Shown piece by piece: positions 40,623 to 43,478 of a stretch of 53,436 bases of DNA. The DNA comes from a virus. Under the pieces are notes generated by a model that saw nothing but the letters and a program-made list of their open reading frames with translations, had not been told where the DNA came from and did not search any database. A program made the position numbers and the translations under genes. The stretch lies in the IMG/VR virus record IMGVR_UViG_3300030503_000465, one strand, 5' to 3'. Each line of letters begins with the position of its first letter. Position 1 is the first letter of the stretch.

Positions 40623-40642
40623 GTGTGTATATTTGTGTGTAT
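40623..40642 (+). promoter_or_regulatory. -7 box TATATTTG (40628..40635), 5 nt before the ATG, embedded in two direct GTGTGTAT repeats (40623 and 40635).
   Basis: Read directly. Confidence 0.5.
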
Positions 40643-40775
40643 GAATGAGAAACCAAAGGTAAAGCGAAATAATTTTACATTATCAGCTGATGCGCAGAAG
40701 TTGATAGACAAAGTACCGCGTCAAAGCAAATCGTACATTGTATCACAGGCTATCATAACATTTTTAAGTAAATAA
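40641..40775 (+). CDS. Ribbon-helix-helix protein, 44 aa; first gene of the plus-strand island.
   Basis: KRNNFTLSADAQKLIDKVPRQSKSYIVSQAIITFLSK. Confidence 0.5.
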   Translation: MNEKPKVKRNNFTLSADAQKLIDKVPRQSKSYIVSQAIITFLSK

Positions 40776-40777
40776 TT

Positions 40778-41503
40778 ATGTGGCAACCAACCCTACTAAC
40801 ACCCGAACAGATACGACGTTGTGAAAATACGATCAGCCCGAATACATTTCACATGATTTGTGGGGATGCGATATTACGCCATAAACCATTATCCGTGGTA
40901 AGATTTGGCGAAGGCGAATTAAAAATTATCAAATGTCTCGAGCAAGGGATTTCGGTACAGGATCATTTTCCAGACGATTGGCGCGTTGACTGGAAAGATA
41001 GGGTCGGCATAAAAGATATACCCGATGGGGAGCTAAAAAGCAGGTTATACAAGGCCCTTAACAATTGCGATTATTTTTCTCCGTTTATTTCGGGAATTAC
41101 GGATGAAAATTTCGACCTTTATTACTTGCGGCAGGAGCAAAGATACTTAGATAATTTCTTTATTAATTTTTGGAACGAAAAGCAAAAAGTAGAGTTATAT
41201 AAGGCGGCGGGGCATGTGTTATTATTGCACCGAAACCCCGACACGGCAAATGCTTTTATAAGAAGGGCGCATCAATTTTTGGGGGTTAAGGTTACTTACT
41301 TCCATCTTTCTAACTGGACGCATTCGGATGACGTTATCAGGCAATGTAACGGCATTGATGCCCCCTTAGTACTATTTAGCGGTGGCCCCGCATCAAAGTA
41401 TATCAGTCCCGAAATAGCCAAGTCGGGTAAGGTCGTTTTAGATGTTGGCAATAGCGTGGATGAGTTTATCCTTTGGGAAACAGAACAAAATAGTAAGAAA
41501 TAA
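40778..41503 (+). CDS. Putative GT-D fold (DUF1792-like) glycosyltransferase.
   Basis: VVRFGEGELKII resembles the RFGDGE motif. The size, 241 aa, fits. Confidence 0.4.
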   Translation: MWQPTLLTPEQIRRCENTISPNTFHMICGDAILRHKPLSVVRFGEGELKIIKCLEQGISVQDHFPDDWRVDWKDRVGIKDIPDGELKSRLYKALNNCDYFSPFISGITDENFDLYYLRQEQRYLDNFFINFWNEKQKVELYKAAGHVLLLHRNPDTANAFIRRAHQFLGVKVTYFHLSNWTHSDDVIRQCNGIDAPLVLFSGGPASKYISPEIAKSGKVVLDVGNSVDEFILWETEQNSKK

Positions 41504-41531
41504 TTAACTTTATAGCATCAATAAAAACATT

Positions 41532-42524
41532 ATGAACAACGTCCTATTTCTTTTAAAAACCAACCTCTCGTCCGGCGGTTCACAGGTTTCCAAATCCGGC
41601 CTGTATAATTCAGCCCGGTTTATAGTGGATGCCATAAGTAAGTTACAGGGGGTTACGGCGACCCTACAAGAAGTTGCCAACCAAAACCATATAGCTGCGG
41701 TTTTAACGTATACGAAGCCCGATATGGTCATCATAGAGGCTGTATGGATAGTGCCATCAAAATTACAACAATTGGTAGATATGTTCCCGCATATAAGGTT
41801 CATTACCCGGTTGCACTCCCGTGTACCGTTTATTGCTATGGAAGGTAATGTGATCGAGTGGATAAAACAATATGGCTTGTTCAGTGAGTTGGCTTTCAAT
41901 AATAAGCAAACAGCAAACGATATGTATAGGGTGGGTATAAAAAATATCTACCTGCCAAATATATATCCAAACGTCGAGCTTTCGCCGGTTCCCCAAATTG
42001 GCAAAAAGCACCATTATAAAATAGGCTGTTTCGGCTCGATACGCCCCTTTAAAAACCAATTGGCACAGGCATTCGCGGCTATATTATTTGCTGAAAAACG
42101 TAATGCTATCGTTCACTTCTACATCAACACTAATGGTATAGAACAAAACGGCAATAGCGTACTCAAAAATATTCGCGCTTTATTTGCCGATACCAGGCAT
42201 AGGTTAATTGAAATAGGCTGGCTGCCTCACGATCAGTTTATTTCGTTATTGCGCTCTATGGATGCGTGTATGCAGGTGAGCTATACAGAAACATTCAACC
42301 TTACTACCGCAGATGCTATATTAGCCCATGTCCCGGTAGTGGTTTCGGATCAGATCGACTGGCTTACATGCCGCAAAGCTAACCCGAATAACGAGAGTGA
42401 TATAGCCGAAGTTTTGGAGTATGTTATAGACAGGAATACGGAACAGGTTGAGGATAATATTTCCGATCTGTTGAAATACAATCATCATGCGAATAGGGAA
42501 TGGTTTAAATTTCTGATGAGATGA
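41532..42524 (+). CDS. Putative GT-B (group 1 / GT4-like) glycosyltransferase.
   Basis: SYTETFNLTTADAILAHVPVVVSD resembles the E-x7-E / PVV region. Confidence 0.5.
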   Translation: MNNVLFLLKTNLSSGGSQVSKSGLYNSARFIVDAISKLQGVTATLQEVANQNHIAAVLTYTKPDMVIIEAVWIVPSKLQQLVDMFPHIRFITRLHSRVPFIAMEGNVIEWIKQYGLFSELAFNNKQTANDMYRVGIKNIYLPNIYPNVELSPVPQIGKKHHYKIGCFGSIRPFKNQLAQAFAAILFAEKRNAIVHFYINTNGIEQNGNSVLKNIRALFADTRHRLIEIGWLPHDQFISLLRSMDACMQVSYTETFNLTTADAILAHVPVVVSDQIDWLTCRKANPNNESDIAEVLEYVIDRNTEQVEDNISDLLKYNHHANREWFKFLMR

Positions 42525-42946
42525 TACTCACAACCGACGAACTAAAGGAACTTATTGACAATTTACCAAATCCTAACGAATACCGGCCAATGCAATATTA
42601 TGGCGTTAAAATGCCTAATATTGAAATCACCACGTCAACGACACCGCCTAAAAGTCGTGAAATGGATGAGATAATTTTTACTAAGCATAGATATTACGGG
42701 CATAGAGGGCATGAATATAAATGGGTGTTGGATTTTGATACGGTTAAAGAAGTTCAAAAGCGATGCGAAGATAGGGTTAAATCTCATTCTGATATTGCAG
42801 AAACATGGAAACGAACAGCTTTAGAAGCCAATAAGCAACGAGAATTTAGTGAGGCTAAGTACAATTCGCTACTTAAAAAATGGTATGTGCGTTTAGCCTT
42901 TAATATTGATTGCTGGATAAAACAAATAAAATGGAAACTGAAATAA
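42521..42946 (+). CDS. Hypothetical protein, 141 aa.
   Basis: ORF with a 4-nt overlap. Confidence 0.55.
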   Translation: MILTTDELKELIDNLPNPNEYRPMQYYGVKMPNIEITTSTTPPKSREMDEIIFTKHRYYGHRGHEYKWVLDFDTVKEVQKRCEDRVKSHSDIAETWKRTALEANKQREFSEAKYNSLLKKWYVRLAFNIDCWIKQIKWKLK

Positions 42947-43086
42947 AGCCACTATGCGAAACTTGGGAGGTATTGACAATTACCGGCAACACTTCCGAAG
43001 GGTTGATAATTAACCTTATTAATGGTAAAACTATAGTTGTTGATGAGATATGTTTTGAATGTGAATTTATATTTGAAGTTAAATGA
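42931..43086 (+). CDS. Small hypothetical protein, 51 aa.
   Basis: METEIKPLCETWEVLTITGNTSEGL... overlaps both neighbours. Confidence 0.35.
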   Translation: METEIKPLCETWEVLTITGNTSEGLIINLINGKTIVVDEICFECEFIFEVK

Positions 43087-43478
43087 ATATGGAAACTGAA
43101 GTAAAAATAGCAAAAATGTCCCTGCTTAAACAATTAGTTGCAAACGCTCCATTTTTAGAGACTAAGCACAAAAACGCTTATATAAATTTATTGGAAGAGC
43201 AAACCGATAATTTAGGATATGAAGAAAACGGATTTATATACCATGTTCGTCCATCTACACGAGAAAGTTATAATTACTGGTTAAGCAGGTACAACGAAAA
43301 TGGGCAAGAAATACTCGACTTATGTAAGGAGTTAGATTTACCTGTTAATTACAAAACTGCATTGCCTGATATGTCGGAAGTTACAATTAAACCTTATGGG
43401 TTATCTGACAAAGAAAAGTATAAAATGAATAGATTGGCGATGGGGGATAGTCCAGTTGATTTACCTTATGGGTACTAA
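43083..43478 (+). CDS. Hypothetical protein, 131 aa.
   Basis: ORF; last gene of the island. Confidence 0.55.
   Translation: MNMETEVKIAKMSLLKQLVANAPFLETKHKNAYINLLEEQTDNLGYEENGFIYHVRPSTRESYNYWLSRYNENGQEILDLCKELDLPVNYKTALPDMSEVTIKPYGLSDKEKYKMNRLAMGDSPVDLPYGY

Follow-up and report, generated by a model that had tools for sequence, protein, structure and literature searches.

A GT-D-like and GT4-type glycosyltransferase pair in an apparent accessory gene cassette of a Winoviridae-like phage genome

Glycosyltransferases encoded by phages modify DNA, change the serotype of the host and, in the mycobacteriophages, coat virions; all three kinds of modification affect host range, immune escape and recognition by antibodies, and so they matter for phage therapy. 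In Gram-positive bacteria, Ser/Thr-rich adhesins are glycosylated by a GT4 enzyme of the GtfA/SdgB type and then by an enzyme of the GT-D fold (DUF1792). The GT-D structures 4PFX and 4PHR of the Protein Data Bank (PDB) are of dGT1 of Streptococcus parasanguinis, and 5V4A comes from S. sanguinis; the partners of these enzymes are GT4 enzymes, GtfA and GtfB among them. In the literature that we searched, the GT-D fold has been characterised only in this adhesin glycosylation, and no link to phages was found. Here we analyse an island of six plus-strand open reading frames (ORF1 to ORF6) that interrupts the minus-strand baseplate genes of IMG/VR virus record IMGVR_UViG_3300030503_000465; the whole stretch of 53,436 nucleotides is referred to below as the window. 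ORF2 and ORF3 encode a GT-D-like and a GT4-type glycosyltransferase that occur side by side in many unrelated genomic contexts. Cassettes of phage glycosyltransferases are known accessory genes; what is new is a compact GT-D-like plus GT4 cassette that is found across phages differing greatly in host and genome size and also in Patescibacteria.

The assignment of ORF2 rests on profile scores and on its predicted fold. Over residues 30–229 of its 241, it scores 50.5 bits against the Pfam family GT-D-like (PF22882, cut-off 27), and this family is found in all 26 of its homologues. The scores for the classical families lie below their cut-offs (24.4 against 27 for PF08759, 34.3 against 75 for NF040628 and 25.5 against 290 for TIGR03728), and judged by these profiles ORF2 is a relative, not a member, of the classical DUF1792 GT-D family. 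The AlphaFold2 model, made with 26 homologues, has a predicted local distance difference test score (pLDDT) of 91.3 and a predicted template modelling score of 0.89. Its top three PDB matches in Foldseek are the DUF1792 structures 4PHR, 4PFX and 5V4A (probability 1.0, template modelling (TM) score 0.53–0.57), followed in rank by TarA/TagA. Both hallmark motifs of DUF1792, svvR(F/M)G(D/E)GE and GGP..K....D.G, are aligned by the family profile, and SVVRFGEGE of ORF2 lines up with SVVRFGDGE of 4PFX and 5V4A. R42, G46 and E47 are invariant in the family, with position 45 being E in the subgroup of this phage and D in more distant homologues; from the alignment, RFGEGE is a conservative ExE variant of the DxE metal-binding motif, metal binding itself being putative. 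The family is small, with 26 clusters, all metagenomic, in a large protein collection.

In the same collection the GT-B family of ORF3 is larger (314). ORF3 passes the cut-off of Pfam Glyco_trans_1_4 by a slim margin (27.4 bits against 27), stays under those of Glycos_transf_1 (18.8 against 26.4) and GT4-conflict (22.1 against 26), and matches phrog_2170, ‘glycosyltransferase’, with an E-value of 6.7e-9. Membership of GT4-conflict was considered and set aside, the score below cut-off being taken as generic GT4 similarity. The predicted structure (pLDDT 92.8) has the two Rossmann domains of a GT-B fold and gives 324 PDB matches in Foldseek at E ≤1e-3, led by retaining GT4 and GT20 enzymes with TM scores of 0.62–0.71. 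TreT, SenB, a glycosyltransferase of PBCV-NY2A, MshA, BshA, PglA and SdgB are the best of these (E 1e-11 to 1e-9), at an identity of just 12–16%, and T4 β-glucosyltransferase is absent from the top 50. R171, K174, E253 and D261 are invariant in 38 homologues, and E253-x7-D261 is a variant of the EX7E motif in which the second acidic residue is D, not E. We infer that E253/D261 and R171/K174 are the catalytic and diphosphate-binding residues of a GT4 enzyme, which is probably retaining. The description of the two proteins in the original prediction as GT-D-like and GT-B-like was borne out by the predicted folds and, narrowly in the case of ORF3, by profiles, and the motifs that it named, RFGEGE and ETFNLTTADAILAHVPVV, are both present in the ORFs. 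With nucleotide-sugar and catalytic motifs intact, both enzymes are catalytically plausible.

A tblastn search of annotated phages gave matches only in Ralstonia jumbo phages. In phiRSL1 the neighbouring genes ORF259 (39% identity, E 4e-59) and ORF258 (35%, E 5e-64) keep the order of the island and lie about 0.5 kb upstream of DNA polymerase I and primase; both are annotated as ‘hypothetical protein’, and phiRSL1 is the only cultured phage with the pair in the collection searched. Of the ∼38 fetched loci that bear a GT-D-like gene, about two thirds have the GT-B gene next to it, and a profile scan of IMG/VR gave 31 loci, 14 of which have an adjacent GT-B gene, in either order. The surroundings differ widely. 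The pair stands beside TROVE/Ro60 and terminase genes in three loci (L005–L007), upstream of PIF1, an N6/N4 methyltransferase and DNA polymerase A in another (L009), and among Hexapep acetyltransferases, DUF5672 and GT11 in L011; in L010 it is reversed and lies in a cluster of nucleoside diphosphate (NDP)-sugar epimerases/dehydratases, GT2 and Glyco_trans_1_2, beside very large proteins. Where no GT-B gene is adjacent, the neighbours of the GT-D-like gene include polysaccharide pyruvyl transferase, GT2 and UDP-glucose dehydrogenase. In the 80,554-bp contig L008 (JGI 3300064101), it is found among primase-helicase, endonuclease VII, RecA and a MazZ-like dGTP diphosphohydrolase, and some loci encode a GT-D domain within a longer protein.

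Cellular genomes carry the pair as well. Among 185,579 species genomes there were eight matching loci (L049–L056), all in metagenome-assembled genomes of Patescibacteria or Gammaproteobacteria, with 33–37% identity. All five neighbours that were scanned there (∼370–390 amino acids (aa)) are GT4 enzymes, and the surroundings are clearly cellular (dnaX, MacB/FtsX, HlyD, a C39-like peptidase). The position beside HlyD and MacB/FtsX exporters and a C39-like peptidase suggests that an exported or surface product is glycosylated in these organisms. Clustering of neighbours over all the loci gave no other gene family common across lineages. Because the pair is adjacent in so many unrelated contexts, and no other neighbour is conserved, the gene orders indicate that only the two enzymes belong together, as a horizontally mobile two-gene module whose pairing is old and functionally linked. 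Since the pair recurs beside DNA polymerase, beside terminase, within sugar-synthesis clusters and in cellular genomes, its place in the baseplate operon is, on this comparison, incidental and no evidence for a tail target; the earlier suggestion that the position hints at a function on fibres or virions is not supported by these many contexts.

A mosaic relative, L012 (Logan SRR11659435 contig, 50,342 bp), has a primase and neighbouring gene 71–72% identical to those of the window. Its GT-B gene, 59% identical to ORF3, lies in a different opposite-strand island (6227–12259) between capsid and portal genes, in which a ribbon–helix–helix gene of family RHH_5 comes first and Glyco_transf_7C, two GT2 genes, the GT-B gene and an FkbM-type Methyltransf_21 gene are also present. 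Glycosyltransferase islands headed by a ribbon–helix–helix (RHH) gene may therefore recur in this phage group. Two further observations concern the fetched loci themselves. The TROVE/Ro60-like genes next to terminase, at 7406–8821 in L005, 14507–15961 in L006 and 5113–6567 in L007, stand in the loci with the closest glycosyltransferase pairs; as phage homologues of Ro60, they suggest an RNA partner of the Y-RNA type. At 14194–14802 of L008, near the GT-D-like gene, RecA and endonuclease VII, there is a weak match to dGTP_diPhyd_N (MazZ-like), and this phage may use a modified purine pathway of the 2-aminoadenine type.

What the pair glycosylates must be argued from analogy. Our favoured reading, held tentatively and with less than even confidence, is that the acceptor is a protein, most likely one or more virion proteins, subject to stepwise O-glycosylation. 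The two enzymes would act in succession on UDP-sugars of the host to build a short glycan, the retaining GT4 enzyme adding the first sugar to a hydroxyl group and the GT-D-like enzyme extending it, an order proposed because of the division of labour in the glycosylation of serine-rich-repeat adhesins. Virion proteins made in the same cell would in this way receive a glycan coat, as on mycobacteriophages and chloroviruses, and a 44-aa CopG-like RHH autorepressor encoded by ORF1 would bind tandem copies of GTGTGTAT over the −7 box TATATTTG, limiting expression of the island. A glycan or protein target is supported by the company of the GT-D-like gene elsewhere, namely the pyruvyl transferase, GT2, UDP-glucose dehydrogenase, NDP-sugar epimerase/dehydratase, Hexapep and GT11 genes described above. 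To our knowledge, the only GT-D enzymes that have been characterised biochemically (4PFX, 4PHR and 5V4A) extend protein O-glycans, and SdgB, a protein O-linked N-acetylglucosamine transferase, is among the fold matches of ORF3.

A number of observations weigh against virion proteins as the target. No Ser-rich tract like those of serine-rich-repeat proteins, and no obvious Ser/Thr-rich C-terminal tail, was found in the virion proteins of this genome; the capsid protein ends in ...GTSLNTSDVPD. A fibre-like protein of 963 aa is 28% Ser/Thr throughout, like many fibres, and lacks serine-rich repeats, so the idea that a Ser/Thr-rich fibre is the target gains no specific support from it. The island lies on the strand opposite to the late structural genes, so there is no assurance that it is expressed together with virion proteins. 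In phiRSL1-like phages the pair is found among replication, not structural, genes, and the same is true of L008. Finally, the Foldseek matches of ORF3 are mostly enzymes whose acceptors are small molecules or lipid-linked.

These last matches bear directly on the other possible acceptors. Many of the GT4 fold matches (PglA, MnaA) act on lipid-linked or envelope precursors and the TarA/TagA matches of the ORF2 model use lipid-linked acceptors, as would be expected if the pair worked on the cytoplasmic side and attached one or two sugars to an undecaprenyl-linked precursor of lipopolysaccharide, capsule or general O-glycan. We consider this, the main rival, unlikely, while giving it real weight, and hold the same view of its supposed effect, a surface change that blocks superinfection or stops progeny sticking to cell debris. 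The association of the GT-D-like gene with polysaccharide pyruvyl transferase, UDP-glucose dehydrogenase and GT2 fits this explanation too, as does an opposite-strand island with its own promoter, typical of genes independent of late expression, and a review of jumbo phages proposes a host-surface role for phage glycosyltransferase clusters (PMC7824862). Against it, neither a flippase, a polymerase, an initiating transferase nor a membrane anchor was found accompanying the pair in the loci examined, and the same pair occurs across Bacteroidota, Ralstonia and Patescibacteria hosts, whose envelope glycans differ. Nor was any integrase or recombinase family, or other sign of lysogeny, found in a Pfam survey of 61 further ORFs of at least 90 aa (E ≤1e-3; six weak families, all with E >1e-4, were left out), a result which does not prove a lytic lifestyle; because no integrase was found, the idea of lysogenic conversion is weakened. 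The lytic jumbo phage phiRSL1 bears the same pair. Of the marks of seroconverting systems of the Gtr and TarP types, neither an integrase (in the Pfam survey) nor a hydrophobic segment (in the island proteins) was found.

A small acceptor is suggested by the best fold matches of the GT-B enzyme, TreT, SenB, OtsA, MshA and BshA, which all use small molecules, with SenB closest in size. The pair would then make or modify a glycoside or disaccharide, a host metabolite or an immune signalling nucleotide, in the service of host takeover or counter-defence; the weak, below-cut-off match to GT4-conflict could be read in the same way, and a universal small acceptor fits the lack of a conserved partner gene. 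We nevertheless think it improbable, for at 12–16% identity the fold matches reflect the general GT4 scaffold, the PADLOC search gave no match to a defence system, and the multi-enzyme glycan clusters found with it in other phages point to the building of oligosaccharides. No GT-D enzyme that uses a small molecule as acceptor is known to us. Glycosylation of the phage's own DNA, as protection against restriction or CRISPR in the manner of the T-even glucosyltransferases and the enzymes linked to 5-hydroxymethylcytosine (5hmC), appears to us very improbable. It is suggested by phiRSL1 and the metagenomic relatives that place the pair just upstream of PIF1 helicase, N6/N4 methyltransferase and DNA polymerase A, and by the primase-helicase, endonuclease VII, RecA and MazZ-like genes around the GT-D-like gene in L008; moreover, phage GT-B enzymes with folds like those of BshA and MshA do modify DNA (Pyle et al., bioRxiv 10.1101/2023.12.21.572611). 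However, the Pfam survey gave no thymidylate-synthase-like hydroxymethylase, TET/JBP dioxygenase or C5-methyltransferase, and since no route to a hydroxymethyl base was found in it, there is no known hydroxyl acceptor on the phage DNA. That T4 β-glucosyltransferase ranks outside the top 50 fold matches, that the same kind of pair exists in cellular genomes and non-phage contexts, that the pair is associated with pyruvyl transferase and UDP-glucose dehydrogenase, and that literature searches gave no GT-D enzyme acting on DNA all argue in the same direction.

The window also holds other proteins rich in Ser and Thr (22–28% S+T). In addition to the 963-aa protein (29226–32117, minus strand), there are proteins of 174 aa (28619–29143, minus) and 184 aa (38634–39188, minus). 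The N-termini of all three resemble a Bacteroidota signal peptide, for example MIKHLKYLTLFLLFLPLWGWGQQ. The 963-aa and 184-aa proteins have no family match and the 174-aa protein has a weak PHROG match, ‘tail spike’ (E 2.7e-4). All three could be fibre proteins, or else accessory proteins of a secreted or lipoprotein-like kind. An ORF of 323 aa (27227–28198, plus strand) contains a tandem array with a 9/18-bp period (27364–27760) that encodes a collagen-like G-X-Y tract. It matches PHROG tail-fibre and ‘collagen-like minor tail’ families, and lies far from the baseplate genes and on the opposite strand to them.

The positions of the island genes and their flanks are collected in Table 1. A mechanical listing of ORFs confirmed that six co-oriented plus-strand genes (40641–43478) stand on the opposite strand within the tail operon, with the first ATG at 40641, not 40642. 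The genes are tightly packed: ORF1 stops 2 nt before the ATG of ORF2, ORF3 and ORF4 overlap by 4 nt, and the 3′ end of ORF6 overlaps that of the convergent hub gene, again by 4 nt. The island had been placed between a gpD-like hub and a gpV-like spike. The hub stands (in other assemblies it is called as 404 aa, 43475..44689); the spike gene is one by position only, between the hub and a gpW-like gene (39783..40088) that is a homologue of gp44 of lotta8-1 and gp51 of Peternella.

Table 1. Coordinates of the island, its signals and the genes on either side
Feature	Position	Strand	Remarks
166-aa gene in spike (P2 gpV / Mu gp45) position	40078..40578	-	assigned by position only; no Pfam or PHROG match
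Divergent intergenic region	40579..40640		62 bp, A+T-rich; between spike-position gene (-) and island (+)
GTGTGTAT direct repeats	40623-40630, 40635-40642	+	two exact copies, 12-bp period; bracket or overlap TATATTTG and the ATG; candidate operator
TATATTTG box	40628-40635	+	matches Bacteroidota -7 consensus TAnnTTTG; ends 5 nt before ATG 40641
ORF1	40623/40641..40775	+	50 aa from GTG, 44 aa from ATG
ORF2	40778..41503	+	241 aa; GT-D-like glycosyltransferase
ORF3	41532..42524	+	330 aa; GT4-type GT-B glycosyltransferase
ORF4	42521..42946	+	141 aa; function unassigned
ORF5	42910/42931..43086	+	58 aa from TTG 42910, or 51 aa
Second TATATTTG box	43068..43075	+	13 nt before ATG 43089, 7 nt before ATG 43083
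ORF6	43083/43089..43478	+	131 or 129 aa
Baseplate hub (P2 gpD / Mu gp44 type)	43475..44722	-	phrog_4930 ‘baseplate hub’, E 2.3e-45

In lotta8-1 and Peternella no gene intervenes between the hub and the baseplate gene that follows it; the two are 10 nt apart in one phage and overlap in the other. The comparison with relatives lacking the island showed that distant Winoviridae carry no gene at this junction. Relative to the conserved hub–spike order of the Winoviridae, the island is, from this synteny, an insertion, a statement made on distant relatives because no island-free close relative was found. When IMG/VR and JGI metagenomes were scanned with single proteins, the hub and the GT-D-like protein, no close relatives came up, and a search of the region at the DNA level against 50,697 phage records gave no match. 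A search for flanking direct repeats that might mark the insertion found only 12–17-nt matches at chance level. Contigs from four other samples carry the island with 100% identity. The highest mean Kyte–Doolittle value over 19 residues is at most 1.28 for all six island proteins, with no transmembrane segment; as there is no hydrophobic segment, all six are predicted to be soluble and cytoplasmic. Taken together, the island appears to be an accessory gene cassette (‘moron’) with its own transcription in a Winoviridae-like myophage of a Bacteroidota host.

The 62-bp spacer probably holds the island promoter. The octamer TATATTTG, which fits TAnnTTTG, is also found 17–37 nt upstream of several other first genes of co-oriented runs in the genome, which bears out the earlier claim that the island has a promoter-like box of its own. 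Its distance of 5 nt from the ATG implies either a leaderless or near-leaderless mRNA, or that the 44-aa ORF is untranslated. The box was said to be flanked by two direct repeats; the copies of GTGTGTAT are there, and the role of operator is a candidate one, the pair being suggestive only. The window contains three copies of GTGTGTAT against 1.8 expected, and a third, imperfect copy of the repeat, ATTTATGTGTA, lies at 40577–40587. With one tandem array set aside, there is about one exact 8-mer direct repeat with an offset of 8–20 nt in every 1.8 kb, which gives a chance of ∼0.03 for the spacer, so that the repeat is only nominally significant. On the minus strand, TACCTTTG at 40654–40661 could be a promoter for the downstream baseplate genes, which would otherwise need read-through across 2.9 kb of antisense island.

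Boxes of this kind are seen at other places in the genome. A 160-bp spacer between oppositely oriented genes (20180–20343) has divergent TAnnTTTG boxes at 20200–20207 (minus) and 20312–20319 (plus) and is probably an early promoter region. A TATATTTG box at 26016–26023 precedes an ORF of 152 aa (26047–26505) whose PHROG match is labelled ‘cysteine dioxygenase’ (E 1.8e-30).

Whether ORF1 encodes an RHH protein, as the original prediction had it, is less clear. Its sequence, KRNNFTLSADAQKLIDKVPRQSKSYIVSQAIITFL, aligns with that of CopG, KRLTITLSESVLENLEKMAREMGLSKSAMISVAL, over the strand, helix A, the SKS turn and helix B, and the Smith–Waterman score of 42 compares with 20 ± 4 in 2,000 shuffles (p ∼0.0005); CopG was one of three comparisons tried, and the sequence used was verified as identical to PDB 1B01. 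The comparison with the RHH_5 protein of L012 gave p=0.05 and the score against Arc was not significant. The first gene of the L012 island, by contrast with ORF1, has profile support (RHH_5, 30.8 bits against the Pfam cut-off of 26). For the 44-aa ORF, searches of Pfam, NCBIfam, PADLOC and PDB sequences gave no match even at E ≤10, blastp-short and phmmer --max found no homologue in any fetched locus, and gene callers left it uncalled on four other assemblies. These results, like the nominal significance of the repeat, count against the regulator that our scheme includes. An RHH fold is plausible but unproven: the CopG-like alignment and the context in L012 speak for it, profiles do not, and on balance the claim is weakly supported.

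It is also possible, though in our view unlikely, that the 44-aa ORF is no gene at all, with TATATTTG driving an mRNA for the GT-D-like enzyme that has a leader of ∼135 nt, and with GTGTGTAT a chance product of low-complexity sequence. A stretch of 200 bp is uncalled on the four other assemblies, no search gave a homologue, the repeat is significant only nominally, and the 5 nt between box and ATG contrasts with 17–37 nt at the heads of other gene runs. Such an explanation would leave the alignment with CopG over all four structural elements (p ∼0.0005) to chance, and it sits uneasily with a stop 2 nt before the ATG of the GT-D-like gene, a spacing typical of coupled genes, and with the Pfam-supported RHH_5 gene at the head of the analogous island in L012.

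ORF4, ORF5 and ORF6 remain without a named family, as had been stated. For ORF4, a search of 5.8 billion proteins returned only the query itself, and Pfam, PHROG, NCBIfam and PADLOC gave no match. ORF5, called as 51 aa on other assemblies, has no match in Pfam, PHROG or NCBIfam and no relatives. ORF6 has no Pfam, PHROG or NCBIfam match above noise and five relatives among 1.84 billion representative proteins, four of them unnamed proteins of 115–123 aa and one a weak match (E 2e-5) to a protein of 1626 aa. None of the three was found travelling with the enzyme pair in the fetched loci, and these orphans are, we infer, passengers unrelated to the pair. The G+C content is 0.31–0.32 across 42800–43400, which covers the last two ORFs, and the second TATATTTG box is a possible internal promoter for ORF6. 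The starts of ORF5 and ORF6 share 20 nt that are 90% identical, AAAATGGAAACTGAAATAAA (42928–42947) and AATATGGAAACTGAAGTAAA (43086–43105), and encode METE(I/V)K; the likeness could reflect a shared translation-start region or a small duplication.

An exact terminal overlap of 127 bp (1–127 = 53310–53436) indicates a complete circular, or circularly permuted, genome of 53,309 bp, and the genes at both ends of the window are thus neighbours. The Pfam and PHROG survey identified a Mu-like head (portal, Mu F, gp36), a ClpP protease, a DUF2586 sheath, a tape-measure protein and DUF6046, together with a GH25 endolysin, RecT, a PIF1/Dda helicase and several homing endonucleases. No tRNA or Rfam family was found anywhere within the window. 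The genes for the protease, sheath, tube, tape measure, a 202-aa protein and the hub have homologues in lotta8-1 and Peternella that stand in the same order. A Shine–Dalgarno-like 4-mer stands upstream of just 5 of 103 ORFs. TAnnTTTG occurs 85 times against 56 ± 7 in shuffles, with 12 of the 85 intergenic in a genome that is 6.7% intergenic. Among cultured phages, the hub is closest to those of Flavobacterium and Winogradskyella phages (Winoviridae; 24–27% identity). The scarcity of Shine–Dalgarno-like 4-mers, the excess of TAnnTTTG and the relatives of the hub together point to a host among the Bacteroidota. A GIY-YIG/NUMOD3 homing-endonuclease gene (48387–49073, minus) lies between the sheath and tube genes, HNH endonucleases are present elsewhere, and the tail genes are in at least three blocks, with a gp47-like baseplate gene at 2720–3559. 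The structural region has therefore been broken up several times, and the island is only one case.

It is possible, though less likely than not, that the pair represents an unrecognised and widely exchanged phage glycosylation system that decorates virion proteins in phages of Gram-negative and candidate-phyla hosts, or else a macromolecule common to these hosts. If this were true, it would be the first viral use of the rare GT-D fold, and virion glycosylation would extend well beyond the actinobacteriophages. Identification of the acceptor would define a new phage glycosylation pathway. The pair is also a caution that function is not to be read from genomic position.

How, then, does the locus compare with described systems? 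With the DUF1792/GT-D enzymes of the serine-rich-repeat adhesin loci it shares the rare fold, both motifs (R-F/M-G-(D/E)-G-E and GGP..K...D.G), a GT4-type partner and the character of a soluble cytoplasmic enzyme. However, ORF2 is only 14–15% identical to them, scores below the PF08759 cut-off, belongs to the separate family PF22882 and has ExE rather than DxE; the island has neither an accessory Sec system nor a serine-rich-repeat substrate, and its setting is a phage with a Gram-negative host. In the case of ORF1, the system for comparison is CopG (RepA) of plasmid pMV158, an RHH autorepressor of 45 aa (PDB 1B01/2CPG). The 44-aa ORF is like it in size, in its place at the head of an operon and in the tandem repeats over the promoter, and the alignment covers the K-R-x-x-x-T-L-S strand and the SKS-x-x-I/V-S-x-A start of the helix, whereas helix A is shorter by three residues and profile support is lacking. 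CopG binds a 13-bp pseudo-palindrome; the candidate operator here, in contrast, is a direct repeat.

The virion-glycosylating mycobacteriophages and chloroviruses likewise encode cytoplasmic glycosyltransferases that use nucleotide sugars of the host. The structure 3OY2, B736L of chlorovirus NY2A, ranks eighth among the fold matches of ORF3. A further likeness is L012, whose island between the capsid and portal genes combines glycosyltransferases with an FkbM-type methyltransferase. Virion glycosylation in mycobacteriophages is reported by Freeman et al. 2023 (as cited in PMC12619734). The genes of these phages are located within structural modules or next to them; the island is likewise in a structural region, but on the opposite strand. 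It differs from the mycobacteriophage type in that the capsid and tube proteins have no clear Ser/Thr-rich C-terminal tail, and any glycan on the virion is putative here. The DNA glucosyltransferases of T-even and 5hmC phages are also GT-B enzymes that sometimes act successively and build di- or oligosaccharides (bioRxiv 10.1101/2023.12.21.572611); unlike them, the pair here has no hydroxymethylase, TET or C5-methyltransferase partner among the surveyed ORFs.

Our literature searches found no characterisation of phiRSL1 ORF258/259, of RsoM2USA gene 80 or of any phage GT-D enzyme. The phiRSL1 proteins are the closest counterparts in a cultured phage, being true homologues of both enzymes and encoded side by side in the order of the island. 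The setting differs from that of the island: the pair is co-stranded with a replication block, with no RHH gene and no tail context, in a 231-kb genome of a phage with a betaproteobacterial host. With these homologues at hand in a cultured phage, the question of the acceptor is directly testable.

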